A stretch of DNA of 64,000 bases from Patescibacteria group bacterium (GTDB lineage Bacteria > Patescibacteriota > Patescibacteriia > Patescibacteriales > WJLG01). Numbering within the stretch: the first letter of the stretch is position 1; every line of letters starts with the position of its first letter. The stretch is taken from contig JAQTUZ010000004.1 in NCBI GenBank assembly GCA_028707065.1, positions 6,656-70,655 on the forward strand, written 5' to 3'. Both the position numbers and the translations under genes were made by a program. Positions 13,249 through 64,000 of this stretch are shown here, one piece after another. Below the pieces are notes generated by a model that had not been told where the DNA came from, searched no databases, and saw only the letters and a program-made list of their open reading frames with translations.

Positions 13249-13342
13249 TTTTGCTGACTAATCAAATTAACACAAATTAATAAAAAAAGCAAGCCACGAT
13301 CGCACAACACATAACTCGTAACACGTAACATGTTTCCTCTGC

Positions 13343-13433
13343 GCCATGCGGCAGTCCCCTAATCGGGAGACTGCCGCATGGCAAGGGAGTAAGAGGTCGC
13401 AAGTCCCCTGATCGGGAGACTGCCGCATGGCAA
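13343..13433. repeat. two direct copies of a hairpin element (CCATGCGGCAGTC-CCCT(A/G)ATCGGGA-GACTGCCGCATGG)
   Basis: Copy 1 (13343-13384) has perfect 13-bp arms. Copy 2 (13402-13433) keeps the loop and right arm, but its left arm is degenerate. Confidence 0.85.
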
Positions 13434-13485
13434 AGAACAGGTTACTTAGTGACAAAAATTATTAATTTTGTTAAAATATTTTTGT

Positions 13486-13621: not shown

Positions 13622-13885
13622 TTACGCCCAGGCCATGATTCCTCCTATTACAATGAGGATAAGCCCGAGATTTCTGAAGAACGTTCCTTGCAGCCAGATC
13701 GGAGCGCCACGACCGTCCTTTACTGTGTTCCGGGAAAGGATCCACCAGCCGGCAACTACCAAGCAAACGCCGAAGAAACCGGTACCCAGGTTGGGATTAT
13801 TCTTGTGCTTGTCGCTTATGCAGGAACAGAGAATGCAACTGAAAGCGCATAAAGTACACAGGAATGAAGAAATGTAAAAACGCAT
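13622..13885 (-). CDS. small Cys-rich membrane protein
   Basis: 87 aa with 2-3 hydrophobic helices, SD AAGGGGG 6 nt upstream of the ATG, and its own terminator. Confidence 0.55.
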   Translation of the reverse strand: MRFYISSFLCTLCAFSCILCSCISDKHKNNPNLGTGFFGVCLVVAGWWILSRNTVKDGRGAPIWLQGTFFRNLGLILIVIGGIMAWA

Positions 13886-32443: not shown

Positions 32444-32517
32444 CCCCCCTCCTTTCGAAGGAGGACCCCCCTCCTTTTCAAGGAGGGGTTTGGGGGTGGT
32501 TCTGGGGGTGGTTCTGC
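32444..32517. repeat. GC-rich palindromic element, intergenic reference copy (two hairpins plus a GGGGGTGGTTCT x2 tail)
   Basis: CCCCCCTCCTTTCGAAGGAGG, then CCCCCCTCCTTTTCAAGGAGGGG, then TTTGGGGGTGGTTCTGGGGGTGGTTCTGC directly after the gyrA stop. Confidence 0.9.
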
Positions 32518-44168: not shown

Positions 44169-44221
44169 GTCCGTTTCAATCACTGTGTTGCAAAACATGG
44201 TGGTCGAAACGGACTTTTTTA
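44169..44221 (+). terminator. intrinsic terminator (long loop)
   Basis: GTCCGTTTC-N28-GAAACGGAC followed by TTTTTT. Confidence 0.6.
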
Positions 44222-44222
44222 T

Positions 44223-44358
44223 TATCAAGCGAAGCGAGTGAAATAATTCCGCTACGGCGGAGATTATTTCCGAGCGAGCGATGATAAATACCTCGTCCGC
44301 TGGTGGCGAGGATACCTTTTAGAAAAGATGGGGCGAGTGCCTGCCCCGCGATTGAATA
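44223..44358 (+). repeat. copy 2 of the ~136-nt structured intergenic element
   Basis: TATCAAGCGAAGCGAGTGAAATAATTCCGC-TAC-GGCGGAGATTATTTCCGAGCGAGCGATGATAAATACCTCGTCC…GGCGAGGATACCTTTTAGAAAAGATGGGGC…GCCCCGCGATTGAATA. Confidence 0.85.
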
Positions 44359-44496
44359 CCATTTATTATTACAATTAAGAAATTGATTTAATTGGCAAAA
44401 AACAAGGGGTAAGATATAATATATAACAAAGAACAGGGAACAAAGAGCAATGCGTTAATAATTATTTTATACTCTTTGATTTATGTTCTTTGATCA

Positions 44497-47400
44497 ATGA
44501 TTTTTATGGCTACTTCTAAATCAATCGAAGAATTGATCAAGTCTTCCCGGGGTGAACCAATGGCTGATGAGTCAGCCGAAGCTAAATTCGCCAAAAAAGA
44601 AGAGGAGATAAAGATCAAGGAAATGGAACGCCAGACCGGCGAGCGGGCCGCCGCCGCGGGGTTGCCTTACATTGATCTTTTCGGTTTTCCCATCAGTCCG
44701 GAGGCGATCGCGCTGATTCCCGAGGCTGACGCGGCCAGATTGAAAATCGTTTGTTTTTTTTATGACGGCAATAACGCCCGGATCGCGGTGATGGATCCGT
44801 CCTTGCCGGAAATCGGACCGATCGCCGAAGCGATCGCCCATGATTACCACGTCAAAGTGGCGTTTTATATGATCTCCTCGCACAGTTTTGACTATGCCTT
44901 GAAAATATACCAGACACTCCCCAAGATCATCCGCCAGACCAGAGGAGTTGATATTACCGAAGAAGAATTGGAAAAATTCAAAACTTATATCGAAGACTAT
45001 CGGAGCTTGGCGCAAAAGATCAACGAGGTCAACACCACCGATGTCATCACCCTGATTTTGGCTACCGCTTTAAAGATGGATTCAAGCGATCTGCACATCG
45101 AGGCGGAAGAAAAAGGCATCGCCGTCCGAGTCCGCGTCGACGGCGTTTTGTACGAGGCGGCAATGATCGAAAAAGAAAAATGGAAGCAGATCATTTCCCG
45201 CTTGAAACTTTTAGCCAAGGTCAAGATCAACATCACCGATAAGCCGCAGGACGGGCGCTTCACTATTTTTTTAACCAAGGAAAAAATCGAAGTCAGGGTT
45301 TCCTTTCTGCCCACCAATTACGGCGAGAGTGTGGTCGTTCGCTTATTGCGGCCGGGTTCGATAAGTTTGGGTTTTGAAAAATTGGGTTTGCGCCCCAAGG
45401 CCTGGGAAATTTTGGAACGGGAGATCAATAAGCCGAACGGCTTGGTCCTTGCCACCGGTCCGACCGGTTCGGGAAAAACCACCACGCTGTACGCGATTTT
45501 GCGGAAGATCAACAAGCCGGGAATGAAAATAATCACCTTGGAAGACCCGATCGAATATCAGCTGGAAGGGATCAACCAAAGCCAGATTGATCCTTCCAAA
45601 GGTTATACTTTCGCGAGCGGCCTAAGGTCGATCTTGCGCCAGGACCCGGACGTGATCATGGTCGGCGAGATCCGCGATCTGGAAACGGGGGAAACGGCGA
45701 TCCAGGCCGCGCTGACCGGCCATCTGGTTTTAAGCACTTTGCATACCAACGACGCCGCCGGCGTACTGCCCCGTTTGATCGATCTGGGCGTCAAGCCGTA
45801 TTTTATGACGCCGTCGATCAACTGCATTGTCGGCCAGCGTTTGGTCAGGCACCTTTGCCCCCAATGCCGGGTTGAGCATATTCTTAATGAAGAAGAAAAA
45901 CAAAAACTGGAAAAAATACTCGCGGTGGTTTCGCCTAAATCCGGAGAAGACGTGCCCACGGTCTTGCCGAAAATTTATCAGGCCGGCGCCGGCTGCAAAG
46001 CTTGCAATGGCATCGGCTATAAAGGCCGTCTCGGCATTTACGAACTTTTTACCATGACCGAGAGCATCAAAGAATTGGCGACGCAAAACGCTCCGGCGTT
46101 CAAATTGCTGGAGCAGGCGATCGAGGATGGCATGCTGACCATGCTGCAGGATGGCGTGTTTAAAGTTATGGACGGACTGACTTCCTTGGATGAAGTTTAT
46201 CGCGTCATCGGCAAAACCGATTATGTCGACGCCTTGTATGATATCGTCATCTCCAAAACTTTCGGCCATGGCATCAAAGTCACCGAAGCGGATATTGCCC
46301 GCAGCGAAGAGATCGCGGCCGACCCGGCCACGATGAATGCCAAAGCCGGCCGCATTCCTTCCAGTGAACTTCTTAATCTGGTTATGGCTTTGGCTCTCAA
46401 AGATGATGCCGGTGATGTCCATATTGAACCGACCGAAGGCGACGTCAAGATCAGATTCAGGATTGACGGCATTTTGCATGATATCTTGACTTTGTCCAAA
46501 GAGCATTATTTGCCGCTTTTGTCGCAAGTGAAAATTTCCGCCGGCTTTCCGACCAATGTCAAAAAGGCTACCTGGGACGGGCGCTTCGGCATATTCTTGA
46601 AAGACAAGAAGATCGATTGCCGCATTTCCATCATTTCCGGCGGCTATGGCGAAACGGTCGTGGTCCGCGTTTTGTCTTCCCAGGCGGAAAGCTTGGATCT
46701 GGAAAAATTAGGCATGCGGCCTTACGCTTTGGATCCGGTCAAGCGCTCGATGTCCAAAACCAAGGGTGTGATCATCAATACCGGTCCGACCGGTTCGGGA
46801 AAAACTACCACGCTTTACGCTATTTTAAACGCCTTGAATAAATCAGACGTGAAAATTATTACTGTCGAAGATCCGATCGAGTATCATCTTCCCGGCGTGA
46901 TGCAGACCCAGATCGACCCGGAACAAGGCTATACTTTCGCCGCGGCCATGCGTTCGCTCTTGCGCCAGAATCCCAACATTATGATGATCGGCGAAATCCG
47001 CGACGAGGAAACGGCCAAGATCGCGATTGAAGCATCGCTCACCGGCCACTTGGTCTTATCAACCATCCACGCCAACACGGCCGCCACCGCCATTTCCCGT
47101 TTTGCCGGCTTGGGCGTGGGCGCGCAAATGCTGGCTTCGGCGGTCGAATGCACGATCGGCCAGCGCCTGGTCCGTAAAAATTGCCAATTCTGCAAAGCGG
47201 AAGTGAAATTATCCGACGAGCAAATGAAAGAAGTAAAAACGATCCTTGATTCCATCAGTCCGCTGGCAAAAATAAAAATCCCCAAAATTTTGAAGTTTTA
47301 TCAAGGGAAGGGCTGCGCCAAATGCAATAACTTGGGCTACAAAGGGCGCTTGGGTATTTATGAAACGATTGAGATGATCCCGGAAATGCAGCGCAAGATC

Positions 47401-47538
47401 CAGGAAACCAACGTGACCGCTTTTGATATCGAGCAAGAGGCGATCAAATACGGCACGGTGACGATGATGCAAGACGGCATTTTGAAAGCTTTGGACGGGG
47501 AGACGAGCGTGGAGGAAGTGTTCCGGGTGGTAAAATAA
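44497..47538 (+). CDS. tandem-duplicated GspE/PilB-family secretion ATPase (two complete ATPase modules in one polypeptide)
   Basis: MshEN-like N-domain, then module 1 (Walker A GPTGSGKTTT at nt 45457, VIMVGEIRD, GHLVLSTLHTNDA, CPQC…CKAC). A ~45-aa linker leads to module 2 (Walker A at nt 46783, IMMIGEIRD, GHLVLSTIHANTA, CQFC…CAKC). Confidence 0.85.
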   Translation: MIFMATSKSIEELIKSSRGEPMADESAEAKFAKKEEEIKIKEMERQTGERAAAAGLPYIDLFGFPISPEAIALIPEADAARLKIVCFFYDGNNARIAVMDPSLPEIGPIAEAIAHDYHVKVAFYMISSHSFDYALKIYQTLPKIIRQTRGVDITEEELEKFKTYIEDYRSLAQKINEVNTTDVITLILATALKMDSSDLHIEAEEKGIAVRVRVDGVLYEAAMIEKEKWKQIISRLKLLAKVKINITDKPQDGRFTIFLTKEKIEVRVSFLPTNYGESVVVRLLRPGSISLGFEKLGLRPKAWEILEREINKPNGLVLATGPTGSGKTTTLYAILRKINKPGMKIITLEDPIEYQLEGINQSQIDPSKGYTFASGLRSILRQDPDVIMVGEIRDLETGETAIQAALTGHLVLSTLHTNDAAGVLPRLIDLGVKPYFMTPSINCIVGQRLVRHLCPQCRVEHILNEEEKQKLEKILAVVSPKSGEDVPTVLPKIYQAGAGCKACNGIGYKGRLGIYELFTMTESIKELATQNAPAFKLLEQAIEDGMLTMLQDGVFKVMDGLTSLDEVYRVIGKTDYVDALYDIVISKTFGHGIKVTEADIARSEEIAADPATMNAKAGRIPSSELLNLVMALALKDDAGDVHIEPTEGDVKIRFRIDGILHDILTLSKEHYLPLLSQVKISAGFPTNVKKATWDGRFGIFLKDKKIDCRISIISGGYGETVVVRVLSSQAESLDLEKLGMRPYALDPVKRSMSKTKGVIINTGPTGSGKTTTLYAILNALNKSDVKIITVEDPIEYHLPGVMQTQIDPEQGYTFAAAMRSLLRQNPNIMMIGEIRDEETAKIAIEASLTGHLVLSTIHANTAATAISRFAGLGVGAQMLASAVECTIGQRLVRKNCQFCKAEVKLSDEQMKEVKTILDSISPLAKIKIPKILKFYQGKGCAKCNNLGYKGRLGIYETIEMIPEMQRKIQETNVTAFDIEQEAIKYGTVTMMQDGILKALDGETSVEEVFRVVK

Positions 47539-51723: not shown

Positions 51724-54700
51724 ATGGAACAAGAATTAAATCCAAACCAAGGCCAAGACCTGGCTGGGCGTAATAAAGAGGATGAGGCAGCGTTATTAAA
51801 GGCAGAGGAAAAAATTAAAAACCTCGCTTTTAAAGACGAACCCGCTACGCCGGATTTCCAGGAAAATTTGCAAAATCGGATTTTGGCGGCGCGCCATCGT
51901 CATTTTTCTATGTCCGAATTTTTAAACAAGCTCGCCAAAGGATTGATTTTTATGTTTGACACCAAGGCTTTTGTCCCGGCCGTGGCCGTTTTTTTGATCA
52001 TTGCCGTCGGCTTGAGCCTGACCATGCCCTGGCTGCCGCGGCAAGCGGGCGTTAATAATCCCTGGGGGAAGATCTCCCAATTGGTTATCAACCCGGCCTA
52101 CGCGCAGGATAATTTTTCCGCCGAGGCGACCATTTCCGACAGCTTGGGCGTTGGCGCCGATACGGCTTTTATCATTAAAAGCAAAGAGGCGATTGACGAG
52201 CAAACTCTGCGGGCGAACATAACTTTACAACCGACGACCGAATTTTCCTTAACCAAGATCGATGATCATACTTATCAAGTAATTCCGGCGCAAGCTTTGG
52301 CGGCCAAGAAAGTTTATAGCTTGAAGATCGCCAGCGCTTATGTCGATCAAAGCGGCGCCACCGTCGAGCGCGATTATTCCTGGGCCTTCCAGGTCAAAGA
52401 TATTTTTAAGGTTTTGAATTCGATCCCGGGCAATCAGGCCAATGGCGTGCCGTTGGATGCCGGAATTGAAGTGACTTTTTCCAACGAAAACTTCAGCAAT
52501 TACGAACAAGCGTTCAAGATCGAGCCGGCCATTGCCGGGCGTTTTGAGATTCACAAGCGCACTTTGGTTTTTGTGCCCAAAGCTTTGGAGGCGGGGATGA
52601 TCTATACCGTGACCATCAATAAAGATTTGCTGAAAGTTACGGGGAGCGAAGCCAAGCTCGCGGAAAATTATGTCATTCAATTTGAAACCGATCCGGCCGG
52701 AAAAAAACGCGGCGAGTATTCCGAATTCAATTTCCAAAATAATTTTAACGAGATCTATACCGAACGCGCGCCGGCGCTGGCTGTCAATCTATACAACATC
52801 AAACAGGAAACTTTTGCCGTCGAAGTTTACGCATTTTCCGGCGCGGACGGATTTATTGCCGCCCTGGAAAAGTCGCAAAAAATTCCCTATTGGGCGCAGT
52901 ACAATCGCGCTGTCTACAATACCGACGTTTCCGCCTTGACTAAAGTTTCCTCGTTTTCCATTCCTTTGTCGCCTTTTGGCTACAACAAATACTTGGTGTT
53001 TCCCGACAAGATCGCCAAGGGTTTTTATGTCGTTCAGGTCAATATCAACGGCGTTTATCTTCAGACATTTATGGAGGTTTCCGATTTGACCAATTATACG
53101 ACCGTGACTGATACCAATACTTTGGTTTGGCTCAACAATATCAAAACCAAAGGACCGGCGGCCGGGGCGAAGGTAAAAATTATCGGCACGGACAAGCAGA
53201 CGGTTACCGGAAGCGACGGAACGGCCGTGATGCCGACCAGCTGGCTGTCTGCCGGCACCACCAGCGACCGCACTTACTTGCTGATCGACGCGGGAGAAAA
53301 AACGATCGTGCCGATCAATTTCAATTATCAAAACACCGCGCCAACGGGCGTCATGCCTTTGAGCGCCGCTTCTAAATTCTGGTATTATTTTTATACCGAT
53401 CGGATGACTTACCAGCCGGGCGACACGGTCAGCTATTGGGGCTTTGTCAAACCACGGGAAGGAGTGAAAAGCTCTTCGACGGTCACGATCAAATTATTCG
53501 GCTGGCAAAGTTATTACGATTATTACAATGACCCGGTGCCGCTCTTGCAAACCGCGGCGCAGCTTGATCCTAACTTTACTTTTACCGGCAAGATCGATCT
53601 GGGGCGTTTATCCGCCGGGTATTATTATTTGGAATATTTTATCGGCGACCAGATGATCGGCAGCCGCGGTTTGAACATCGAGAACTATGTCAAACCGGCT
53701 TATAAAGTGGAGGCGAACGCCGACCAGCACGCGGTTTTTGCGGGGCAGACCCAGTCGATCGCGGTCAAGGCCAGCTTTTTCGAAGGCACGCCGGTTCCTA
53801 ATCTGGCTTTAACTGACCCGAACGATAACGGGCAATTAAAAACCAACGCTTTGGGCGAAGCGATCAAAACTTTTAAGGTCGATCCGGTTTCCGGCGACTA
53901 CGGCAGCAACTGCAATTATTTTTATCCGGTCGCGTCCGAGGAAGCCGATATTTCCGCCAGCGCTTGCTACACTGTTTTCAATTATAGCGTCGTCCCCAAG
54001 GGGGAACTGGTGAAAACGGACGGAGCCGATCAGGCGAAATTGCAATTAAACGTGAAAAAGGTGGATATCGCCAAAGCCAACGTGGTCGGGGCGACCGAAG
54101 ATCAATTCTTGCACGAAGCCGCTCCGGGCATGCCCGTAACCGTTTCGGTCACGGAAATTTCTTATCAGGCCGTTTCCACCGGACAGTATTATGATTTCTT
54201 CAATAAGATCGTGCGTAATACCTATCGCTACAATGAGATCAGAAATAATATCGCCTCGGCCAAGGGCAAAACCGATTCGGCCGGCCAATACCAGTATTCA
54301 TTTCCGATCAAGCCGAAAAACAGTTATGAAGTCAATGTCACGATCAAGGATGTTAACGGCCAGGATATCAATGAGCGATATTATATCTATTACAGCCAGT
54401 ATAATTTTGACGATCAAAGCGATTATTATAATTTGGGATTCAAAGATCAGAAGAAAACGGATTTTTCCTTGGGCGAACAGGTGCAGATCCAATATAAGAA
54501 TAAGGATCAGCTCTTGCCTGTTGCCCCCGGCCATTATCTTTTCTATCGCCTGTTCAAAGGATTGGTGGATTATCAGATCGGCGGCAGCGCGGAATATAAT
54601 TTCAATTTTACCGACCGCTTCTTGCCCGGCGTGTACGTGATGGGAGTTTATTTTGACGGTGAAACTTACCATCGGCCGGGAAGTTACGGTTATTGGGAGT

Positions 54701-57297
54701 CATATTCCCCCGGGCTGTATGTGCCTTTCAAGCAAACCGACCGGGAATTAAAAGTCGAGGTGACGCCGGATAAAGACAAATATCAGCCGGGAGGCGAGGT
54801 GAAGTTGGCTGTCAAAGTTACCGACAAATCCGGCAAGCCCGTGGCGGCGAGCGTCAATCTTAATCTGGTTGACGAGTCTTATTACGCGATCTATCCGGAA
54901 AACGTCGATGCCCTGGGAGGATTATACGGCAATCGGGTCGAGGACGGCGAGTTAGTGACTTATATTTCCAATCCGGCGCCGGCGCTTGGCGCCGAAGTCG
55001 CGGAAAGGGGCGGCTGTTTTCTCGCGGGCACCAAAATAACCATGGCCGACCGGTCGCTTAAAAATATCGAAGATGTTAAAATCGGCGACGAGGTGCTTAC
55101 CTTTACCAATGAAACGGCGCGGAGTTTGGTGGCGGGAAAAGTAACCAAGACCTATGTCCACGAAGTCGGCGAGTATTTGATCATTAATGATAAATTAAAA
55201 ATCACTCCGATCCACCGCGTTTTCTTGAACGGCCAATGGCGGATGATCGGCGAAGCCAAGGTCGGCGACTGGCTTTTGGACGAGCAAGGCGAAAAAGTTA
55301 AGATTGCCAAGATCGAGGACCGCCGCGGTCTGTTCAAAGTTTATAATCTGACGATCGAGCCTTATCATACTTTTTTTGCCGAAGGTTTTTATGTCCATAA
55401 TGATAAAGGCGGCGGCGTGCGTTCGCTGTTCGTGGATACGGCCGTGTTTATGAACGTCAACACCGGCGCTGATGGCGCGGCAATCGCCGCCTTCAAGCTG
55501 CCGGATAATATCACTTCCTGGCGCGTGACCGCGCAAGCTTTAAGCGGCGATCTTTACGCCGGCGACAAGGTCATCAATCTCAAATCGTCTCTGCCGGCCT
55601 TCGTCAACACCACTTTCGCCAAAGAATATTTAACGGTCGATAAGCCGATCGTAAAAGTGCGGGCTTTCGGCGACGCGCTGCGCGATAATGATCCGGTGCA
55701 ATTCAAAATGGACGCGCCGACTTTGAATTTTTCGAGCACGACCGTCGGCCAGGCCTTTGTTGCTTCCTATTTTAAGCTCCCGCCATTGGCGATCGGCGAG
55801 CACTCGATCACCACGGCGATCAAAGCCGGCGGCAACCAGGACGCGGTTTTGGAAAAAGTGAAGGTGCTCGATACTCGTTTTAAAGAAACCAAAACCCAGT
55901 TCTATGAATTATCGCCGGGCCTTAAAGCGGCCGGGGCGCCCGATGGCCAGACTAATTTGATTTTCAGCGACAAAAACCAAGGCCGATTCTACGGCCAGCT
56001 TTCCTATTGTTTCTTTTGTTCGGGCGGCGATCGGGTCGATCAAAAATTGGCCCGGGTCGTATCGGCCGATCTCTTGAAGAAATATTTCGGCGAAGAACCC
56101 TTTAACCCGGAAACTTTTAACGGGGCGATGTATCAAACCGATGACGGCGGCGTCGCTTTGCTGCCCTATGCTTCTTCGGATTTTGAATTGTCAGCCAAGG
56201 TCGCTTTTGTCGCCGGAGATTATTTCGATAAGACCCGGCTGACCAATTATTTTTACAAGATTTTGACGGCCGATGATTCGACCCGCGAACAAGTCGGGGT
56301 TTCTCTTTTCGCCTTGAGCGGTTTGGGCGAACCGATCTTGTCGCCGGCGGAAAATTTCGCCGCGCTGCCCGATCTCACCGCTAAGGAAAAATTGTATATC
56401 GGCATTGCCCTGAATCATTTGGGCGACGCGGAAACGGCGCGCGCTATCTATTCGGCGGTAATAAAAGACAAAGGAGAAAAATTAGATCCTTATCTGCGGG
56501 TCAAAGTTTCGGATTCCAACGATGAGATTTTGGCGGCGACCTCGCTGGCGGCGATCTTGGCGGGCGGGCTCTTAATTCCCGATCATGAACAATTATGGAA
56601 TTACGCGGAAAGTAATTATACCCGGAATATCTCGATTGATCTGGAAAAGCTGGCCTATGTTTCCGAAACTTTGCCCAAACTTACTCCGGGCGAAGTATCC
56701 TTTACCATCAATCTGCCCGGAAGAAAAATCGACAAAACTCTCTCGCGCGGCGAAAGTTTCCGCCTGAAAATCGAACCGGCTGATCTGGGAGTGATTTCAT
56801 TCTCCAATATCAAAGGCCAGGTCGGCTTGACCAGTTCTTACCAGGCGCGCGAAGCCAATATCGCGCCTCGTGATGATTCTTATGTTTCCTTGCGGAGAGA
56901 ATACTATGTCAACGGCGTTAAGACCAATACCTTCAAAGAAAGCGACTTGGTGGAGATCAGGATGTACCCGTCCTTCAAACCCGGCGCCTTAAATTATGGT
57001 TATCAAATTACCGATCTGCTCCCTTCCGGGTTGAGCGTGATGACCAATCTTTATTCGCGCGGCATGAATTACTCCTGCAGCAATTATTATCCTTACGAAG
57101 TTAACGGGCAGACGGTTAAGTTCTCGATCTGGAAGGACTGGAATAAAGGTTCATATTGCCATACGGATTATTTCAGTTATTTCGCCCGCGTCGTTAATCC
57201 GGGCGAATACCGGGCCGAATCGGCCGTGATCCAGTCGTTCGAGGCAAGCACCGTCAAGAATTATTCCGGCGCGAATACGGTGTTGATCGAAAAATAA
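51724..57297 (+). CDS. membrane-anchored alpha-2-macroglobulin-like protein (1857 aa) with an inserted Hint domain
   Basis: Starts 4 nt after the sigma-factor stop. N-terminal ~80 aa, then a TM helix (AFVPAVAVFLIIAVGLSLTM). MG-type domains (FYTDRMTYQPGDTVSYWGFV; VEVTPDKDKYQPGGEVKLAVKVTDKSGKPVAASVNLNLVDESYYAI). A2M block (VRSLFVDTAVFMNV…FKLPDNITSWRVTAQA). I saw no CxEQ thioester motif. Confidence 0.8.
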   Translation: MEQELNPNQGQDLAGRNKEDEAALLKAEEKIKNLAFKDEPATPDFQENLQNRILAARHRHFSMSEFLNKLAKGLIFMFDTKAFVPAVAVFLIIAVGLSLTMPWLPRQAGVNNPWGKISQLVINPAYAQDNFSAEATISDSLGVGADTAFIIKSKEAIDEQTLRANITLQPTTEFSLTKIDDHTYQVIPAQALAAKKVYSLKIASAYVDQSGATVERDYSWAFQVKDIFKVLNSIPGNQANGVPLDAGIEVTFSNENFSNYEQAFKIEPAIAGRFEIHKRTLVFVPKALEAGMIYTVTINKDLLKVTGSEAKLAENYVIQFETDPAGKKRGEYSEFNFQNNFNEIYTERAPALAVNLYNIKQETFAVEVYAFSGADGFIAALEKSQKIPYWAQYNRAVYNTDVSALTKVSSFSIPLSPFGYNKYLVFPDKIAKGFYVVQVNINGVYLQTFMEVSDLTNYTTVTDTNTLVWLNNIKTKGPAAGAKVKIIGTDKQTVTGSDGTAVMPTSWLSAGTTSDRTYLLIDAGEKTIVPINFNYQNTAPTGVMPLSAASKFWYYFYTDRMTYQPGDTVSYWGFVKPREGVKSSSTVTIKLFGWQSYYDYYNDPVPLLQTAAQLDPNFTFTGKIDLGRLSAGYYYLEYFIGDQMIGSRGLNIENYVKPAYKVEANADQHAVFAGQTQSIAVKASFFEGTPVPNLALTDPNDNGQLKTNALGEAIKTFKVDPVSGDYGSNCNYFYPVASEEADISASACYTVFNYSVVPKGELVKTDGADQAKLQLNVKKVDIAKANVVGATEDQFLHEAAPGMPVTVSVTEISYQAVSTGQYYDFFNKIVRNTYRYNEIRNNIASAKGKTDSAGQYQYSFPIKPKNSYEVNVTIKDVNGQDINERYYIYYSQYNFDDQSDYYNLGFKDQKKTDFSLGEQVQIQYKNKDQLLPVAPGHYLFYRLFKGLVDYQIGGSAEYNFNFTDRFLPGVYVMGVYFDGETYHRPGSYGYWESYSPGLYVPFKQTDRELKVEVTPDKDKYQPGGEVKLAVKVTDKSGKPVAASVNLNLVDESYYAIYPENVDALGGLYGNRVEDGELVTYISNPAPALGAEVAERGGCFLAGTKITMADRSLKNIEDVKIGDEVLTFTNETARSLVAGKVTKTYVHEVGEYLIINDKLKITPIHRVFLNGQWRMIGEAKVGDWLLDEQGEKVKIAKIEDRRGLFKVYNLTIEPYHTFFAEGFYVHNDKGGGVRSLFVDTAVFMNVNTGADGAAIAAFKLPDNITSWRVTAQALSGDLYAGDKVINLKSSLPAFVNTTFAKEYLTVDKPIVKVRAFGDALRDNDPVQFKMDAPTLNFSSTTVGQAFVASYFKLPPLAIGEHSITTAIKAGGNQDAVLEKVKVLDTRFKETKTQFYELSPGLKAAGAPDGQTNLIFSDKNQGRFYGQLSYCFFCSGGDRVDQKLARVVSADLLKKYFGEEPFNPETFNGAMYQTDDGGVALLPYASSDFELSAKVAFVAGDYFDKTRLTNYFYKILTADDSTREQVGVSLFALSGLGEPILSPAENFAALPDLTAKEKLYIGIALNHLGDAETARAIYSAVIKDKGEKLDPYLRVKVSDSNDEILAATSLAAILAGGLLIPDHEQLWNYAESNYTRNISIDLEKLAYVSETLPKLTPGEVSFTINLPGRKIDKTLSRGESFRLKIEPADLGVISFSNIKGQVGLTSSYQAREANIAPRDDSYVSLRREYYVNGVKTNTFKESDLVEIRMYPSFKPGALNYGYQITDLLPSGLSVMTNLYSRGMNYSCSNYYPYEVNGQTVKFSIWKDWNKGSYCHTDYFSYFARVVNPGEYRAESAVIQSFEASTVKNYSGANTVLIEK
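55015..55401 (+). other. Hint / bacterial-intein-like (BIL) domain, 129 aa, no endonuclease
   Basis: CFLAGTKI (block A), ITPIH (block B TxxH), VYNLTIEPYHTFFAEG (block F), FYVHN (block G). The next residue is Asp. Confidence 0.8.
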
Positions 57298-57307
57298 ATC
57301 TTATCTT

Positions 57308-59266
57308 ATGGCGGGAAGAAGGATCATCATTTTAATTTTTGTTTTAGGCGCATCGGCGGTCATCTTGGCCGCCGGTGCGTTTGTATTGGAGAAAAAGAAT
57401 TTTTCCGCGGAAAAGGCGATCAGCCCGGATCGGCCGGCTAATGAAGCGGTGAATGAATCGGCGCATATTTTTCCTTATGATCGTAATCTTTTCAATTCAG
57501 CCATCAGTAAAAATTATCTTGAGCGAATGGCGACGAGCGGGCCGGTCATTGCCGGCCTGGTGCCGCATCATGAGTTGGCCGGGGATCTGGCCGCGGAATT
57601 TTTTTCCTCGCTGGCGCAAAAACAAAAAGTTAATAATTTCATTGTCATCGGACCCTTGCACTCGGATCAAGCGGTCGGCCCCGCGGTAAGCGGGCGGTTT
57701 ATCTGGGATGCCGGGTTTGGCCAGGTGGAAAATAATTATGAAATACTGGACGATCTGGTCGCGGCTCATTTGGTGGTTTATGACGAGAATGCGGTGCGGA
57801 GCGAGCACGCTCTTTATAATATGGCGCCGTTCATCGCCCATTATTTTCCGGAGGCGAAGATCGCGCCGATCGCCTTGACTTCGCGTAATTCTCCGGAACA
57901 ATGTTTCGCTTTGGCTCAGGCTCTGCAGAAATATCTGGCCCAAGGGGATACGGTGCTGGTCGCCTCGATCGATTTTTCCCATTATCTTCCGGCTGATCAA
58001 ACTCCGGCCAAAAATTTGCGAATGATCGAGTTGATAAAAAATAAGGATTACCAGACGATTGCCGGCCTGGCCAATGATTATTTGGATTCGCCCCCTTCGC
58101 TTATCACCTTGCTTAAGGCCGCTGATCTGTCGGATGCCGGCGTTAATATTTTAGCTTCGACCAATTCCGGAGAAATTACCGGGACGCCGGTTCTTTCTTC
58201 AACCAGCTATATCAGCGCCTTTTTTGCCGTCCCCCTCCTTTCAAATGAGTCTGTCCCCGCGAAGGCGGGGAAGGGGTCTGGGCCCGTCTCGGTTTTACCT
58301 ACAGCGTCCAGTAGTCCCTTGAAGCTGCTTTTTTTCGGCGACATTATGCTTGATCGCCAGGTCGGCGAAAAGATCAAGGCTTCGGGAAGCTTGGACTGGA
58401 TCTTCAAGGGCTTGAATTCGACCGGAATTTTTCAAGGCAATGATATTGTTTCCGCCAATCTGGAAGGCGCGGCCACTGATAATGGCGCGCATTATCCGCC
58501 GGCCTTGGTTTTTGATTTTGCTTTCGCGCCCAAGCTGGTCGGAGAGCTCGCGAAATATAATTTTAATTATTTTAATCTGGCCAATAATCATTTAGCCGAT
58601 CAGGGCAAAAATGGTATAATAGAGACAGAGAAAAATCTTACTGATCTGGGTTTTGTTTTTGCCGGCTGCCAGGATCGCCAAGTCGGCGACTGCACGGCCA
58701 AAATTGTGGAGAAAAGCGGCCGCCAGATCGGGTTGATCGGCGCGAGCATGGTTTATGGCGCGCTTGATGAAAACCGCCTGATCGCCGAAGTAAAAAAGCT
58801 GGCCAGTTCCACCGATTTAGTGGCGGTGCAAATACATTGGGGAACGGAATACAAGCACGAGGCGGCGGCCAACCAAACCGTTTTGGCGCGCAAATTGATC
58901 GATGCCGGCGCTGATATCATCATCGGCCATCATCCGCATGTGGTCGGCGGGGTGGAACTATATAAAAATAAGCCGATTTTTTATTCGCTGGGGAATTTCG
59001 TTTTTGATCAGTATTTTTCTCTTGATACGCAGGAAGAGTTGGGAGTGAGGATAGCCGTAACCACCCCCAAACCCCTCCTTGGAAAGGAGGGGGGCGAGGG
59101 GAAAAATTTCCAGATCGATCTTTTGCCGATCAAATCGGAAGCCGGACGCTTGCGCCTGATGAATAACGCGGAGAAAGATAAATTTTTGACCAAGCTGGCG
59201 GGCTGGTCGATCGGCGATAAAAATTTTTTGTCGGAAGTCGGAGCGGGTAAAATAGTTATTGAATAA
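57308..59266 (+). CDS. fusion protein: Memo-like (AmmeMemoRadiSam B-type) N-domain plus CapA/PGA_cap metallophosphatase C-domain
   Basis: N-terminal TM helix. Memo-like blocks are GLVPHHELAG and ASIDFSHYLP. CapA-like blocks are LLFFGDIMLDR, ANLEGA, NLANNHLADQG, GHHPHVVGG and YSLGNFVFDQ. Confidence 0.7.
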   Translation: MAGRRIIILIFVLGASAVILAAGAFVLEKKNFSAEKAISPDRPANEAVNESAHIFPYDRNLFNSAISKNYLERMATSGPVIAGLVPHHELAGDLAAEFFSSLAQKQKVNNFIVIGPLHSDQAVGPAVSGRFIWDAGFGQVENNYEILDDLVAAHLVVYDENAVRSEHALYNMAPFIAHYFPEAKIAPIALTSRNSPEQCFALAQALQKYLAQGDTVLVASIDFSHYLPADQTPAKNLRMIELIKNKDYQTIAGLANDYLDSPPSLITLLKAADLSDAGVNILASTNSGEITGTPVLSSTSYISAFFAVPLLSNESVPAKAGKGSGPVSVLPTASSSPLKLLFFGDIMLDRQVGEKIKASGSLDWIFKGLNSTGIFQGNDIVSANLEGAATDNGAHYPPALVFDFAFAPKLVGELAKYNFNYFNLANNHLADQGKNGIIETEKNLTDLGFVFAGCQDRQVGDCTAKIVEKSGRQIGLIGASMVYGALDENRLIAEVKKLASSTDLVAVQIHWGTEYKHEAAANQTVLARKLIDAGADIIIGHHPHVVGGVELYKNKPIFYSLGNFVFDQYFSLDTQEELGVRIAVTTPKPLLGKEGGEGKNFQIDLLPIKSEAGRLRLMNNAEKDKFLTKLAGWSIGDKNFLSEVGAGKIVIE

Positions 59267-59860: not shown

Positions 59861-61005
59861 AAATATCCAAGAATTACTTTATGGCCGTGGCGGTTTTGGT
59901 CGGCGCGATTACCGGCGCCGGAGTTTTTGCCATGCCTTTTGTTTTGACTCATTCCGGTCTTTGGCCGTTTGTTTTTTGGTTTCCCATTTTGGTCGCGGTC
60001 CAATGCCTGATCCATCTTCTTTTTGCCAAAGTCATTTTGTCCACCAAGGGCTTGCACCGCGTTCCCGGCTACACGGAAATTTATGCCGGAAAGAATTGGA
60101 AAAAAATTGTTTCGATTTTTGCCGTAATCGGCGGCTGGGGCACGATCCTGGCCTATATAATTTTGGGCGGCGTCTTTTTTAATCAGTTTTTTTCCCCGCT
60201 GATCGGGGGCAGCCTTTTCACTAATTCGCTCATTTTTTTCGCCTTGGAAACTGTGGTGGTCATTGCCGGATTAAAGACGATCGCGGGATCGGAAATGATT
60301 TTTTCCTTTTTACTCCTTATTTTATTCGTGGTGCTGTCGGTCAAATGCTTCGGCCGGTTTGATCTGAGCAATTTTACGGCGGTCAATTGGGAGGATTTTT
60401 TTCTCCCTTATGGCGTGATTTTTTTCGCGATTGGCGGCGATGCGGCCATTCCGGAAGTGGTAAAACTTTTGGATAAGGAAAAGGAAAAAATAAAAAGCGC
60501 GATCTTGTGGGGGACGATCTTGCCCGCGGTTATGATGTTTATTTTTGTGATCGCCACGGTCGGGGCAATGGGCGCGTTGACTACCGCAGACGCTTTGTCT
60601 GGATTGAACAAATTTTTCGGCAATGGCTTTGTTTCCATCTCCCTGCTTTTCGGCTTAATTTGCATTGCCACTTCGTTCTGGGTATTTGCCCAAGCGGTGC
60701 GGGAAATATTCTGGTGGGACTTTAAGATCAATAAGTATTGGTCGCTGGTTTTAGCCGTCGGCGTTCCGCTGGCATTTTTTATTTTCGGCTTTACTAATTT
60801 GACGACAGTCGTTTCTCTTTCCGGCGCGATCACCAGCGGCGTTTTAGGAATTATTCTGATTTCTCTGACCGCGGCCGTGGACCGTGAGGGGCAAAAAAAA
60901 TCGCCCATCGCCATTAAAACTTCCCGGCCGTTGGCGATCGTTTTGTATTCTCTTTTCATTGTCGGGTTTTTGACCGAGCTGTGGACGATAATTTTTAAAT
61001 TATGA
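59857..61005 (+). CDS. amino-acid permease-like transporter (~11 TM helices)
   Basis: The N-terminus …AVAVLVGAITGAGVFAMPFV… is typical of amino acid/aromatic amino acid permease families. 382 aa and polytopic. Confidence 0.65.
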   Translation: MKISKNYFMAVAVLVGAITGAGVFAMPFVLTHSGLWPFVFWFPILVAVQCLIHLLFAKVILSTKGLHRVPGYTEIYAGKNWKKIVSIFAVIGGWGTILAYIILGGVFFNQFFSPLIGGSLFTNSLIFFALETVVVIAGLKTIAGSEMIFSFLLLILFVVLSVKCFGRFDLSNFTAVNWEDFFLPYGVIFFAIGGDAAIPEVVKLLDKEKEKIKSAILWGTILPAVMMFIFVIATVGAMGALTTADALSGLNKFFGNGFVSISLLFGLICIATSFWVFAQAVREIFWWDFKINKYWSLVLAVGVPLAFFIFGFTNLTTVVSLSGAITSGVLGIILISLTAAVDREGQKKSPIAIKTSRPLAIVLYSLFIVGFLTELWTIIFKL

Positions 61006-61571
61006 AAATCGCGGTAATTTCCGATCTTCACGATAATCTGGTCAACTTGAGAAAATGTCTCTCTTGGTGCGGGCAAAATAATATCGAGAAGCTGATCTGC
61101 TGCGGCGACGTGACCAACGCGGAGACGCTGGGAATTCTTTCCCGGGAATTTAAGGGAGAAATTTTTTTAGTCCGCGGCAATTTGGAGATCTACCAAGAAG
61201 AAGAAATCGAGCCTTATAAAAATTATACTTATGGCGGGCGGCTTGCCGGCCATAGCCTTGGCGACGGCCGGACGGCGATTTGGGAGATTGATGGAAAAAA
61301 AGTCGGCGTCTGCCATGAACCTTTTTTTATCAATCAAGTTTTAGCAAAAGCAAAATCCCCCCTCCTTTCTAAGGAGGGGTCTGGGGGTGGTTCTGCAAAG
61401 GCGGCGGACATCGTCTTTTACGGCCATACTCATAAGCCCTGGATCGAAGAAAAAGACCATGTTCAAATAGTGAATCCGGGAACTTTGGGCGGAGTCTTCA
61501 CTCAGCCGACTTTTGCTGCTTGGGATACCGTGAGTGGTAAACTGGAATTAAAATTGCTGAATAATCTCTAA
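61002..61571 (+). CDS. YfcE/MJ0936-type metallophosphoesterase
   Basis: MKIAVISDLHDN, CCGDV, VRGNLE and FYGHTHKP motifs. Carries a 14-aa insertion encoded by the GC-rich palindromic element. Confidence 0.8.
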   Translation: MKIAVISDLHDNLVNLRKCLSWCGQNNIEKLICCGDVTNAETLGILSREFKGEIFLVRGNLEIYQEEEIEPYKNYTYGGRLAGHSLGDGRTAIWEIDGKKVGVCHEPFFINQVLAKAKSPLLSKEGSGGGSAKAADIVFYGHTHKPWIEEKDHVQIVNPGTLGGVFTQPTFAAWDTVSGKLELKLLNNL

Positions 61572-61596: not shown

Positions 61597-62382
61597 ATGA
61601 ATATTGATCGGCAAATTAAACAAATCGCGATCAACGCGGCCAAACAGGCCGGTAAGGCTTTGAGCGCGGAATATTTCCGCTTCAATCGGGCCGACGTCCA
61701 GATGAAATCGCGCTTTGAAATTTTGACCCGGGCGGATCTTTTGAGCGAGGAAATTATTTTAAAAGAGATCAGGCGTAATTTTCCGCATCACCATATTTTG
61801 TCCGAAGAAACCGGCGATAATAAAGCGGTGTCGGATTATTTTTGGATCATTGATCCTTTGGACGGAACCACTAATTTTTTCATGCGCGATCCAATGTGGT
61901 CGATCTCGATTGCCTTGGCTTATCAAGGCGAATTGATCTTGGGGATTGTTTACGCGCCGATCTTGGGTGAATTTTATCTGGCCGAAAAGGGTGAGGGCGC
62001 AACCTTGAATGGTCGATCAATAAAAGTTTCCGATATCAGTAAAAATCAGGTAGTTAATTTGTTTTGTCATGGTCATAATGATCCGGCCATAAAAAAGGCC
62101 GTGAAATATTATACCTATCAGAAAATTCATGGTTTTGATTCTCGGCAGATAGGATCGGCCGCGCTGGAATTGGCTTATACTGCCGGAGGCCGGGTTGAAT
62201 CGATCTCGATTCCGGGCGCTGATCTTTATGACGTGGCTGCCGGCGTGCTTTTGGTCAAAGAAGCGGGCGGAAAAGTGACTGATTTGAAAAATAAGGAATG
62301 GACAATTGCCAGTCAGGACATGGTCGCTTCTAATGGCAAGGTCCATCAGGATGTTTTGGGTGTTTTTAAGAAAATCAGCTAA
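61597..62382 (+). CDS. suhB: inositol monophosphatase family protein
   Basis: ILSEETG…, WIIDPLDGTTNF, and the C-terminal WD-like block (…DVAAGVLLVKEAGG). Confidence 0.85.
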   Translation: MNIDRQIKQIAINAAKQAGKALSAEYFRFNRADVQMKSRFEILTRADLLSEEIILKEIRRNFPHHHILSEETGDNKAVSDYFWIIDPLDGTTNFFMRDPMWSISIALAYQGELILGIVYAPILGEFYLAEKGEGATLNGRSIKVSDISKNQVVNLFCHGHNDPAIKKAVKYYTYQKIHGFDSRQIGSAALELAYTAGGRVESISIPGADLYDVAAGVLLVKEAGGKVTDLKNKEWTIASQDMVASNGKVHQDVLGVFKKIS

Positions 62383-62396
62383 AGACCTTAAGGCTC

Positions 62397-62425
62397 TTGA
62401 CAGCTTTTTTGATTTGTAATATAAC
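62397..62425 (+). promoter_or_regulatory. sigma-70-like promoter (TTGACA-N17-TATAAC)
   Basis: Read directly, 15 nt after the suhB-like stop. Confidence 0.5.
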
Positions 62426-62429
62426 ACAA

Positions 62430-62522
62430 TTAAGTGGGTGAATTCCCTGTTTAATGGTGTTAGTCGAAGCAGTATGGGCTTTGCTCGAACGAAGCAATCG
62501 TTTTGGCAAAGCCCTTTTTTTT
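62430..62522 (+). ncRNA. candidate ~90-nt small RNA (promoter-to-terminator unit without an ORF)
   Basis: Bounded by the promoter at 62397-62425 and the terminator GGGCTTTGC-N21-GCAAAGCCC-TTTTTTTT (62476-62522). The loop contains CGAAGCAATCG, as does the terminator at 62854-62903. Confidence 0.35.
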
Positions 62523-62657
62523 ATCAAGCGAAGCGAGCGAAATAATCCCGCGACAGCGGAGATTATTTCCGAGCGAGCGATGATAAATACTTCGTCCGGC
62601 GGCACGCGAGGATACCTTTCAGAAAAGATGGGTGCGGGGATTGCCTTGCGCTTGATA
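62522..62657 (+). repeat. copy 3 of the ~136-nt structured intergenic element
   Basis: Terminal inverted repeat TATCAAGCG…CGCTTGATA. Internal hairpins are GAAATAATCCCGC-GACA-GCGGAGATTATTTC, CTTCGTCC…GCGAGG and GCGGGG-ATTG-CCTTGC. Confidence 0.85.
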
Positions 62658-62752
62658 CCATTCGTTTGTTATAATTATCTTGGTTCATTCAGCCCCTTTT
62701 CTGGCATGAAAAGGGATATCCGCATTTCAACCCCTTTAAAGAGAGGTGAATT

Positions 62753-62830
62753 ATGCTTCACTTTACCATCGGCCAAAACATTGGCCCTCCGGCGATCATA
62801 GTCGCCAAAAAAACAGCGCGCATCAAATAA
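62753..62830 (+). CDS. possible 25-aa micropeptide (MLHFTIGQNIGPPAIIVAKKTARIK)
   Basis: Strong SD AGAGAGGTG 4-5 nt upstream of the ATG, followed by its own terminator. Too short to support further. Confidence 0.25.
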   Translation: MLHFTIGQNIGPPAIIVAKKTARIK

Positions 62831-62853
62831 GAAAAAAGTGCGTGGTGTTGGTC

Positions 62854-62903
62854 GGGTTCTGGCTAAGCGAAGCAATCGCTTGGACAGAACCCCCTATTTT
62901 TTT
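62854..62903 (+). terminator. intrinsic terminator
   Basis: GGGTTCTG-N23-CAGAACCC followed by CTATTTTTTT. Confidence 0.8.
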
Positions 62904-62909
62904 ACACGC

Positions 62910-62937
62910 TTGATCGGTGGAAAAAAATTGCTACAAT
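62910..62937 (+). promoter_or_regulatory. sigma-70 promoter (TTGATC-N16-TGcTACAAT)
   Basis: Read directly. It drives a ~300-nt unit holding only two tiny overlapping ORFs (17 and 15 codons, ATGA overlap). Confidence 0.55.
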
Positions 62938-63219
62938 TATATTCTGTTCCTTTGCTCATTATTATTTAAATTTATCTAAATATTATCCCCTGTAAAAAGG
63001 GGAGTTGGCAATAAACCTTCCACTTTCAAAAATAGAAAGGACAACCGTCTATGATTGTATCGATCAGCACGTCACAAGCGGCCGCCAAAACGCAAACCGC
63101 ATGAAGAAGCCGGCGTTACCAATGAAAGGGGAAAAAGATGAGGCATAAACACCCTCTGCCAAGGGATTCTCCCTAGGAAAATAGTGTCGGAATATATCCG
63201 ATAGTTAGGGCAAATTCGG

Positions 63220-63254
63220 CGGAAGCAAGACTAAGGTCTTCGCTTCCGTTTTTT
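63220..63254 (+). terminator. intrinsic terminator
   Basis: CGGAAGCAAGAC-TAAG-GTCTTCGCTTCCG followed by TTTTTT. Confidence 0.8.
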
Positions 63255-63265
63255 AAAATGTGGTA

Positions 63266-63294
63266 TTGACAAATTTTATAGAATGTGATAATGT
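63266..63294 (+). promoter_or_regulatory. consensus sigma-70 promoter (TTGACA-N17-TGaTAATGT)
   Basis: Read directly, 12 nt after the preceding terminator. Confidence 0.65.
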
Positions 63295-63334
63295 TAAAAT
63301 ACGAACGTTGAAAAGATTATAGCCGGTTTTAGAG

Positions 63335-63363
63335 CCACTGGGAAGGCGTCCCAATGGTTTTTT
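63335..63363 (+). terminator. early hairpin plus T-run (attenuator-like) ~40 nt after the predicted transcription start
   Basis: CCACTGGGA-AGGCG-TCCCAATGG (one C/A mismatch) followed by TTTTTT. Confidence 0.5.
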
Positions 63364-63885
63364 GTTCCACCTTAACTATCCCAACCCAGCGCGGGTGCCG
63401 GATAATAGAAAGAGAAAGCATACATTCGCCGCCTGTTTTCATTGTTTCGGTAAACACATTTTCTCAACACGGGCCACGGACCTACTGTGGACACAGGAAG
63501 CAGTGGGGCCAGTTCTGTACCGGCAGGAACTAAAATACTTGTCCGGACATTGTTGCCTGCACTCCCCATCGGGACCCCGCACGGGCGGTAAACCGAGGCT
63601 CCAGGCAACGCGATGCGCAATCGACAATCGCCGCCACCAACGACATCATTTCCTGCGGCGACGCGCAAAACCTCGTTCCTTTAATGCGCGCTACGTTCTG
63701 TCGATATGAAGAACGAGCAATTCCAACCACGAAATCCAATCCCGGGCTAACGTGACATTGGCCCAAAGGAAAGGGACATCATGCGAAGAAAATTCGCCTA
63801 TGAAAGTCGAGCAGCGCCGCAGGCACTGACATCCTGAATCTTCAGGGGCAGCAACCTGCAAGGCTGACTGTCTACGATAGCATAC

Positions 63886-63922
63886 GGGAGCGAGATTGAT
63901 CTAATCAACTCGCTCCTTTTTT
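63886..63922 (+). terminator. intrinsic terminator
   Basis: GGAGCGAG(A)TTGAT-CTA-ATCAACTCGCTCC followed by TTTTTT. Confidence 0.85.
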
Positions 63923-64000
63923 AATATCCAATATCAAATAATAAATATCAAAAAAATATTATAATATTTAAATATTTTTTAATATATCGGTTATTTGATA

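Follow-up and report, generated by a model that had tools for sequence, protein, structure and literature searches.

Stand-alone RNA genes of bacteria, among them the small RNAs (sRNAs), have their own promoter and intrinsic terminator, lie in intergenic DNA, are noncoding, and carry hairpin modules that are conserved above the neutral level over a narrow phylogenetic range. The plus-strand unit described here, at positions 63266-63922 of a 64,000-nt stretch of Patescibacteria DNA (the window, i.e., the whole stretch analysed), has the same features. It differs from typical sRNAs in being far longer (620 to 784 nt), in consisting mostly of unconstrained spacer, and in matching no Rfam 15 family. 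In length it is more like OLE, GOLLD, ROOL, raiA, and HEARO, which also measure several hundred nt, have no assigned function, and are in some cases accessory or patchily distributed. Those RNAs, however, are conserved and covarying over the greater part of the molecule, whereas approximately 35% of the unit is conserved, with no sequence or structure match to any of them. Transcription attenuators and terminator-gated leaders offer another parallel, in that a conserved hairpin and U-run lie approximately 35 to 65 nt after the start and precede a longer conserved transcript; unlike them, the unit has no identified antiterminator fold and no downstream protein gene, and the leader before its hairpin is just approximately 35 nt. 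Several strings of the unit (GGUAAACC.., ..CCCGGGCUAAC, and AUGAAAGUCG) resemble conserved regions of type A RNase P RNA, but only GCGGUAAACCGAGG is located within conserved sequence, as the 3' arm of a hairpin (H2, below).

Patescibacteria (CPR) have tiny genomes with very little noncoding DNA. To our knowledge, almost nothing is known about their regulatory RNAs, and in the literature on noncoding RNAs of this group, we found nothing on this unit. The gene content of the window is usual for the group (type IV pilus genes, FtsK, and gyrA), and the nearest species representative to its genome is a Candidatus Falkowbacteria MAG. A homologue of the unit is present on one related metagenome contig (L034; JGI Ga0643848_0000703), on the corresponding strand and at the same position. 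We consider the segment from approximately 63300 to 63920 on the plus strand to be, with a probability of roughly 60%, an independent gene for a noncoding RNA whose family is undescribed, carried by a few closely related Falkowbacteria-like Patescibacteria. The first-pass annotation had proposed an RNA of approximately 600 nt, structured and of unknown class. The noncoding, self-contained plus-strand unit without a described class holds up; structure along its whole length does not, with approximately two thirds of it unconstrained. Judged from the alignment, the unit is a transcript with conserved modules and not a 600-nt ornate fold. That 0.6 to 0.8 kb of noncoding DNA has a 105-nt core still approximately 90% identical while synonymous sites are saturated argues for a function worth the cost of carrying it. 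With a core model (R1) and defined 5' and 3' ends, the locus is a small, testable object.

Rfam 15 gave no match anywhere in the 64 kb at the gathering score and, at E<=10, noise alone in 62700-64000, in 63270-63930, and in the L034 homologue. ARAGORN, run at its default threshold with introns of up to 1000 nt allowed, found no tRNA or tmRNA in the window; at a lowered threshold, it listed two candidates with poor stems. RNase P RNA, tmRNA, 6S RNA, OLE, GOLLD, ROOL, HEARO, and group I and group II introns are therefore not supported; the Rfam comparison proposed at the outset covered RNase P, tmRNA, 6S, OLE, GOLLD, and ROOL. The large ornate RNAs, raiA included, can be set aside for lack of a match to their Rfam models. 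An ORF-less group II intron was likewise rejected, as the unit (whose ends are AUACGAAC... and ...CUCGCUCCUUUUUU) has no GUGYG 5' end and no domain V. The RNase P-like strings that the first-pass annotation pointed out do exist, and its reluctance to call the unit RNase P was justified: covariance-model searches up to E<=10 give no match, and the two strings that would have to pair as P4 come in the wrong order, the CR-V-like one (63728) preceding the CR-I-like one (63801), with neither kept in L034. The RNase P RNA gene is essential and single-copy. Within the parts of related contigs that were covered, the unit is deleted in L002 and absent from the L035, L038, L003, and L021 loci, and its being missing from close relatives makes it a poor fit to an essential RNA.

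Promoter, terminators, and surroundings

The last credible gene upstream of the unit encodes an inositol monophosphatase, and no credible ORF was found between it and the window end. The intervening 1.6-kb stretch is occupied by small transcription units, one after another on the plus strand, which all have their own promoter and intrinsic terminator; the unit studied here is the last of them before the window ends. The features of the locus are as follows:

61597-62382: inositol monophosphatase gene, last credible gene before the 1.6-kb stretch
63266-63294, plus strand: sigma-70-type promoter, with -35 TTGACA at 63266-63271 and extended -10 TG-A-TAATGT at 63286-63294, 17-nt spacer
63303-63367, plus strand: 5' domain, with an apical hairpin (63334-63343 with 63349-63358, loop AGGCG) and then T6 at 63358-63363
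63354-63533, plus strand: ORF1, 59-72 codons, open in both genomes; its start AUG, within the 5' hairpin, and its stop UAA (63531) are conserved
63368-63507, plus strand: variable spacer 1, 46-54% identity to L034, indels of 10, 12, 5, and 12 nt
63508-63612, plus strand: conserved core of 105 nt with hairpins H1 and H2, approximately 90% identical to L034
63628-63661, plus strand: hairpin H3, stem TCGCCG 63628-63633 with CGGCGA 63656-63661, variable 22-nt loop
63662-63765, plus strand: variable spacer 2, 46-62% identity, L034 insertions of 40, 12, and 11 nt
63766-63797, plus strand: conserved block AAGGAAAGGnACAUCAUG, Shine-Dalgarno-like with AUG at 63781, plus hairpin H4; runs of 9 and 12 nt conserved
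63781-63837, plus strand: ORF of 17-18 codons starting at AAGGAAAGGnACAUCAUG; MRRKFAYESRAAPQALTS in the window, MRMHFARNHRRAAASVW in L034
63887-63922, plus strand: intrinsic terminator, interrupted stem 63887-63916 followed by T6 at 63917-63922
63923-64000, no strand: AT-rich palindrome of approximately 100 bp, directly 3' of the unit and clipped by the window end; context, outside the RNA

The unit had been placed between a consensus promoter and a strong terminator. The terminator is as described, whereas the promoter, although present, was not listed by a generic promoter scan of the sequence, so that we regard it as near-consensus rather than consensus. Its -10 can also be read as TGT-GATAAT (63284-63292), with a 15-nt spacer. 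The geometry fits the host form TTGACA-N14-TGnTATNAT present elsewhere in the window; the layout is kept in L034 and in a further relative, L036, and the -35 part survives in a third, L002. From this promoter, transcription would start at approximately 63300. The unit was also said to be GC-richer than its flanks, which is correct (51.3% versus 36-42%); at 49.9% GC, however, the genes of the window are similar, so the unit is gene-like and not unusually GC-rich.

An early hairpin with a T-run, noticed before, is present (63334-63358, with T6 at 63358-63363). It resembles an intrinsic terminator, a G+C-rich hairpin followed by a U-run being found at 63334-63363 as it is at the 3' end of the unit. 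Hairpin and T-run together are 87% identical to L034 (alignment columns 41-80), and this conservation makes conditional read-through at the early hairpin plausible. A candidate closing helix, in which GAAC (63303-63306) would pair with GTTC (63364-63367) and GAAAA (63310-63314) with the T-run, is possible; it was predicted on the window/L034 alignment, and its pairs are invariant. L034 retains both terminators, the 3' one with a different stem sequence (GGGGCGG..CCGCCCC) and a T-run in the same place.

Downstream of the unit come the terminator, the palindrome, and then, as seen in relatives, a convergent uvrA. The palindrome is 95% identical to that of L002 and 91% identical to that of L034, and its inverted-repeat arms are present. 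In the window and its relatives, there is no same-strand protein gene 3' of the unit, and inside it there is just the ORF of 17-18 codons; lacking a protein gene to control, the unit is neither a leader nor a riboswitch of one.

Conserved modules, folding, and coding potential

As a neutral yardstick, we used the third codon positions of genes orthologous between the window and L034, which are 42-51% identical (57-76% and 77-87% at codon positions 1 and 2, respectively). Compared with L034, the unit is a mosaic. The core is approximately 90% identical in alignment A3 and consists of blocks of 72-92% identity in alignment A2; apart from the conserved modules, identity is 40-55%, and indels of 10, 12, 5, 12, 40, 12, 11, 44, and 9 nt separate the two sequences. 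Given that spacer identity is about that of third codon positions, the spacers evolve at the neutral rate, and in spacer 1 the sole detectable constraint is on an 8-nt block, CACGGGCC (A2 columns 198-205, about 63469-63476). The conserved blocks lie far above the neutral level, including at would-be third positions in any frame. The constrained share is about a third of the approximately 620 nt and comprises the 5' hairpin, the 105-nt core, two small hairpins, and the terminator. The comparison shows purifying selection at the nucleotide level on the blocks predicted to form hairpins. Conservation in relatives had been named as the test of the original proposal, and it is in hairpin-forming blocks that the L034 homologue is conserved.

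Within the core, H1 pairs 63520-63527 with 63538-63541 and 63543-63546 and has a CCGG/CCGG base and an invariant 10-nt loop, AACUAAAAUA. H2 is an irregular hairpin of three tiers (63553-63559/63602-63608, 63566-63572/63593-63598, and 63577-63580/63585-63588) and is both the MFE and the centroid fold of the window and L034 sequences when each is folded alone. Further 3', identity is high over AAGGAAAGGnACATCATGCGAA...TTCGC (63766-63797) and over the complementary blocks 63628-63633 and 63656-63661. The H3 stem is invariant while 10 of its 22 loop positions are substituted, and the H4 stem (GCGAA 63783-63787 with UUCGC 63793-63797) is invariant with 4 of 5 loop positions changed in L034. Four pairs of complementary segments had been listed from the sequence; all are present, and L034 conserves TCGCCG/CGGCGA and GCGAA/TTCGC but not CTCGTTC/GAACGAG or GCAGG/CCTGC. 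A long-range helix, CCUGCGGCG/CGCCGCAGG, and the long-range pairs given by RNAalifold were dropped for lack of demonstrable conservation.

Folding of the full unit gave a z-score of about -2.9 on the plus strand (none of 100 shuffles was as low) and -1.6 on the minus strand. Without the two terminators, z is -2.15, a value equalled by 6 of 28 random windows of the same genome, so that single-sequence folding is not demonstrably beyond that of the surroundings. The core as a whole takes a common fold in the two sequences, each folded by itself, and does so on the plus strand only: z is -2.6 and -2.8 there and -0.7 on the opposite strand. All seven substitutions in H2 fall in unpaired positions (hypergeometric probability about 7e-4 by our own calculation). 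Over the five hairpin spans, 3 of 108 paired columns are substituted versus 39 of 89 unpaired columns, a contrast with some circularity in it, since it was through their conserved complementary blocks that H3 and H4 were picked out. Two of the three changes in paired columns keep a G-U pair and the third shifts a mismatch; G-U pairs, and changes from A-U or G-C to G-U, work on the plus strand only. Between the two sequences, 55 of the 58 pairs in the proposed helices are invariant, two change on one side to G-U, and one departs only by an unpaired cell. Support for the helices comes from stems that are conserved around variable loops and not from covariation, which the first-pass annotation had proposed to look for: none of the 58 pairs of this two-sequence comparison has a double-sided compensatory change, and the stem of the 3' terminator alone differs on both sides between the window and L034.

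The view that no ORF of the unit is protein-like is confirmed by codon usage, with negative log-odds in all six frames, each below the 5th percentile of real genes. Mismatches between the window and L034 are distributed over the three phases as 77/88/81 in the whole unit and 6/6/5 in the core, i.e., with no 3-base periodicity; ORF1, which is the longest frame open in both genomes, has 28/27/20, and the 3' part has 15/23/22. Neither small ORF (63781 or 63354) has a coding substitution pattern, and most indels between the two units are not multiples of three. A 150-codon ORF called by JGI on L034 is a singleton hypothetical protein, and its counterpart in the window is the Arg/His/Cys-rich frame. 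Long open frames are common in this GC-rich stretch; one other than that of ORF1 is open for 128 codons in the window and 150 in L034. Pfam gave no match for ten frame pieces, and the ORFs of the window unit are not in a collection of 5.8 billion proteins. The six-frame translation had no match in that collection either, a weak test that missed the 150-aa protein of L034 itself. An exhaustive phmmer search with the most protein-like frame gave a single match, rejected as spurious and repeat-inflated. No degraded protein gene, the finding that would have told against the original proposal, has turned up in these translated and profile searches (Pfam and phmmer, with the six-frame search weak), and by the evidence of codon usage, substitution pattern, and these searches, the unit is neither a protein gene nor a recognisable pseudogene. 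Homology of its 5' part with a small-ORF unit of the same intergenic region (unit B; MFHL...) was unsupported by an nhmmer profile search.

Proposed mechanism and rival explanations

We propose that a host-type sigma-70 promoter starts transcription near 63300 and that a stem-loop and the U-run behind it, within the first approximately 65 nt, probably halt part of the transcripts to give a short form of approximately 65 nt. The remaining transcripts would read through into a long form of 620 nt (784 nt in L034), in which the same 5' bases could close as a 5' terminal stem (GAAC/GUUC plus GAAAA/UUUUU); such a stem in read-through transcripts is suggested by the conserved complementarity of GAAC...GUUC and GAAAA...UUUUU. 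The long form would bear the two-hairpin core of approximately 105 nt, the two small hairpins, and the purine-rich AUG block, separated by free spacers, and would stop at the strong 3' terminator. The functional parts are presumably the conserved modules, most likely serving as a binding platform for a protein or another RNA, with the core as the most plausible putative platform. At the level of sequence, it is shown that the unit is noncoding, that its predicted hairpins are strand-specific, and that its expression signals are intact and conserved.

The main rival to a noncoding RNA gene, in our view unlikely, is a messenger that encodes one or two tiny proteins and whose conserved RNA blocks serve translation control. 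The Shine-Dalgarno-like and AUG block is among the best conserved stretches. The ORF at 63781 has 18 codons in the window and 17 in L034, and by our own reading the two share M, R, F, A, R, and A when compared without gaps, with three synonymous differences. ORF1 has, in both genomes, an AUG, a GGGAAGG Shine-Dalgarno-like motif 7 nt upstream, and a UAA, the net indel between them being 39 nt, a multiple of three; and unit B in the same intergenic region has a clearly conserved ORF of 25 codons. However, substitutions show no codon-phase bias in either ORF region, the peptides are Arg/His/Cys-rich and unconserved except where the bases also form stems, and the middle of ORF1 is 46-54% identical in DNA with single indels of 10 and 5 nt. 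The frequency of long open frames in this stretch further weakens the case, and a small-ORF mRNA would leave the 90% conserved core unexplained, in which third positions are kept in every frame. We regard as improbable that the locus acts as DNA, either as nested inverted repeats bound by a protein or as a recombination hot-spot or cassette beside the palindrome, with the transcription signals incidental. DNA palindromes bound by proteins do show conserved complementary blocks with variable spacers; moreover, the unit adjoins the palindrome, which is 91-95% conserved, and what occupies the position varies among relatives. An element of this kind would not account for the strand-specific stability of the fold (z -2.6/-2.8 versus -0.7), for G-U pairs and changes to G-U that are mismatches on the other strand, or for a conserved promoter and two conserved terminators, all co-oriented. 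H2, with its irregular three tiers and asymmetric conserved internal loops, is unlike operator palindromes, and there are no terminal inverted repeats, second copy, or nearby recombinase gene.

We consider it very improbable that the unit is what is left of a decaying protein gene, or of foreign DNA once captured, and now lacks a function. Its GC content equals that of genes, its distribution is patchy with a loss in L002, and two thirds of it evolve neutrally, all as a remnant would have it; decay, however, would be even, whereas the blocks are 87-92% identical against a neutral 42-51%. The expression signals are intact and conserved, and no frame has protein similarity, although the six-frame part of that search is weak. 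It is hardly credible that the unit belongs to a known class in diverged or permuted form, whether as RNase P RNA, tmRNA, an OLE/GOLLD/ROOL-type large RNA, an ORF-less group II intron, or a tRNA gene interrupted by a group I intron. Besides the strings that recall RNase P, such a reading could draw on the tRNA genes that Patescibacteria hide behind group I introns, according to PMC13011429; yet neither the unit nor its homologue gave a match at the Rfam 15 gathering score or anything relevant at E<=10, ARAGORN identified no real tRNA or tmRNA, and the group II hallmarks are missing.

Taking the noncoding RNA gene as the preferred reading, a bolder form of it can be put forward, which we hold to be speculative and rather improbable. 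The unit would then be the founding example of a new class of Patescibacteria RNAs of large size (0.6-0.8 kb), whose near-invariant core would act in sensing or in recruiting a protein and be expressed only on read-through of the 5' terminator. The unit would reside in a cassette-like slot (from the conserved promoter to the palindrome of approximately 100 bp beside uvrA) where different RNA genes are swapped or lost among close relatives.

Distribution among relatives

Relatives were reached by anchoring on the neighbouring gene and then on uvrA, which lies convergently on the far side in relatives. The L034 homologue has unit B on one side and, on the other, the AT-rich palindrome found ahead of the uvrA terminator. 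L002 is the closest relative by the neighbouring gene (83% protein identity) and lacks 63278-63916: it aligns with the window up to 63277 and resumes from 63917. We considered reading this absence as an insertion into the window and dropped it, as L034 has the unit and L002 retains GGTATTGACAGATTT, the -35 region of the unit, joined to the palindrome via T-run microhomology. Retention of this -35 region argues that L002 lost the unit by deletion and not that the window gained it, and the TTTT(A/T) microhomology at the junction is better taken as a deletion scar.

L035 and L038 lack the unit at the locus as well, as do loci of the L003/L009/L021 type, where the intergenic region is much shorter; the L022 and L023 sequences stop before the locus. 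L036 has a different, gene-poor unit of approximately 0.9 kb at the same position, with the same promoter type. A covariance model of the core, run over 357 kb of related loci, gave no additional copy, and no second copy was found in the window. A MITE or IS-derived element was rejected on the same ground of a single copy (window plus 357 kb), together with the lack of terminal inverted repeats. Comparison by blastn with phage and plasmid collections gave no match to the unit, and pattern scans of viral contigs, core included, gave nothing or chance 17-mers.

The distribution of the unit is narrow and patchy, the two sequences being those of the window and of one of the relatives examined, both groundwater-type bacteria, and the unit is dispensable, being deleted or absent in close relatives. 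Its loss in these relatives suggests an accessory rather than a housekeeping role.

As regards the position itself, the window and L034 have the unit there, L036 has another unit, of approximately 0.9 kb, and in L002 the DNA is cleanly deleted. One further relative has an 840-nt gene-free gap after uvrA, which may hold another homologue.

Small transcription units upstream of the RNA unit

Two small plus-strand transcription units, A and B, lie between the inositol monophosphatase gene and the candidate noncoding RNA gene (the RNA unit, window 63266-63922, plus strand), and both are found in related genomes.

Unit A, short RNA: window 62397-62521; L002 10787-10905; L003 1430-1570; L021 2475-2600; L034 about 10215-10105 (minus strand)
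Unit B, small-ORF unit: window 62650-62900 (ORF 62753-62830); L002 10905-11148; L003 1560-1800; L034 about 10090-9870 (minus strand)

Unit A comprises a promoter and an RNA of approximately 90 nt whose 3' end is a conserved terminator (GGGCTTTGC...GCAAAGCCC); a 5' GGTTGTTCTCTTG is likewise conserved in most relatives. The unit resembles an sRNA, or an attenuator preceding unit B. In unit B, a 5' hairpin accompanies an ORF of 23-29 codons with a good Shine-Dalgarno sequence; this ORF is kept in relatives around a GPPA motif (MLHFTIGQNIGPPAIIVAKKTARIK, MRQFTIGQNIGPPAILIAQSSAR, MFHLTYGLTLGPPASLSAMPRRKIG, MLLFDSGQQHGPPASVFTKRDPTEEKDGH) and probably encodes a genuine micro-protein or leader peptide.

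An open frame and an alternative unit at the RNA-unit position

The following features lie within the RNA unit, at its position in a relative, or directly beside it.

Shared open reading frame: window 63354-63533; L034 9766-9548 (minus strand)
Different GC-rich unit of approximately 0.9 kb: L036 7060-8010 (minus strand)
AT-rich palindrome of approximately 100 bp: window 63923-64000 (truncated by the window end); L002 11479-11577; L034 8936-9037; L036 6971-7065

The frame is open in both the window and the L034 homologue, running from a conserved AUG in the 5' hairpin (window 63334-63358) to a conserved UAA in the loop of H1, the first hairpin of the conserved core, with GGGAAGG located 7 nt upstream of the AUG. 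Its length differs by a net 39 nt of indels (59 codons in the window, 72 in L034), and between the two there is no conservation of amino-acid sequence or of codon-phase pattern. The frame may have arisen by chance in GC-rich sequence, or it may be a leader for which only the act of translation matters.

In L036, the RNA-unit position, immediately before the AT-rich palindrome, is occupied by the GC-rich unit of approximately 0.9 kb, which has the same promoter type as the RNA unit and its own terminator. Its ORFs are exclusively Arg-rich and gave no Pfam match, and similarity to the window's RNA unit is not detectable.

The palindrome itself is located between the RNA-unit locus and the terminator of the convergent gene uvrA. 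It is 95% identical to that of L002 and 91% to that of L034, while identities of orthologous genes are far lower (64-78%), and it is retained even where the RNA unit has been deleted.

Dispersed repeats and other features of the window

Two repeat families and a second ORF-poor stretch were also observed.

Dispersed repeat of approximately 146 nt: window 62515-62660, 44216-44361, 12502-12643 (minus strand), 12650-12721 (minus strand)
Short GC-rich hairpin repeat: window 61357-61395, 32444-32504, 59059-59094 (minus strand); L002 4788-4832, 19157-19195
Second stretch of approximately 1.6 kb without an ORF of at least 120 codons: window 12447-14084

Copies of the 146-nt repeat include a palindrome (GAAATAATCCCGCG..CGCGGGATTATTTC) and are 76-86% identical to each other. 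Relatives lack the copy located between units A and B, and Logan contig L001 ends inside it. Several sites in the window's genome and in L002 carry the GC-rich hairpin repeat (CCCCCCTCCTT-TCTA-AGGAGGGG..GGGGGTGG); its copy at 61357-61395 lies inside a protein-coding Metallophos_2 ORF (61002-61571).

The 146-nt repeat is present twice in the ORF-poor stretch, which also has a strong hairpin pair (GTCCCCTnATCGGGAGACTGCCGCATGGCAA twice, 13330-13440), a promoter-like site (13449) and, possibly, an 87-codon membrane ORF (13622-13885, minus strand). Among the 28 random background windows of 522 nt used as folding controls, one was far more structured than the others (z = -6.8, folding energy versus shuffled sequence); it may overlap a repeat or hairpin region.

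Elsewhere, window 44497-47538 encodes a T2SSE ATPase of 1013 aa with two T2SSE stretches, suggesting an intein or fusion, and 51724-57297 encodes an alpha-2-macroglobulin-like protein of 1857 aa with a Hint/intein-like domain at residues ~1097-1226.
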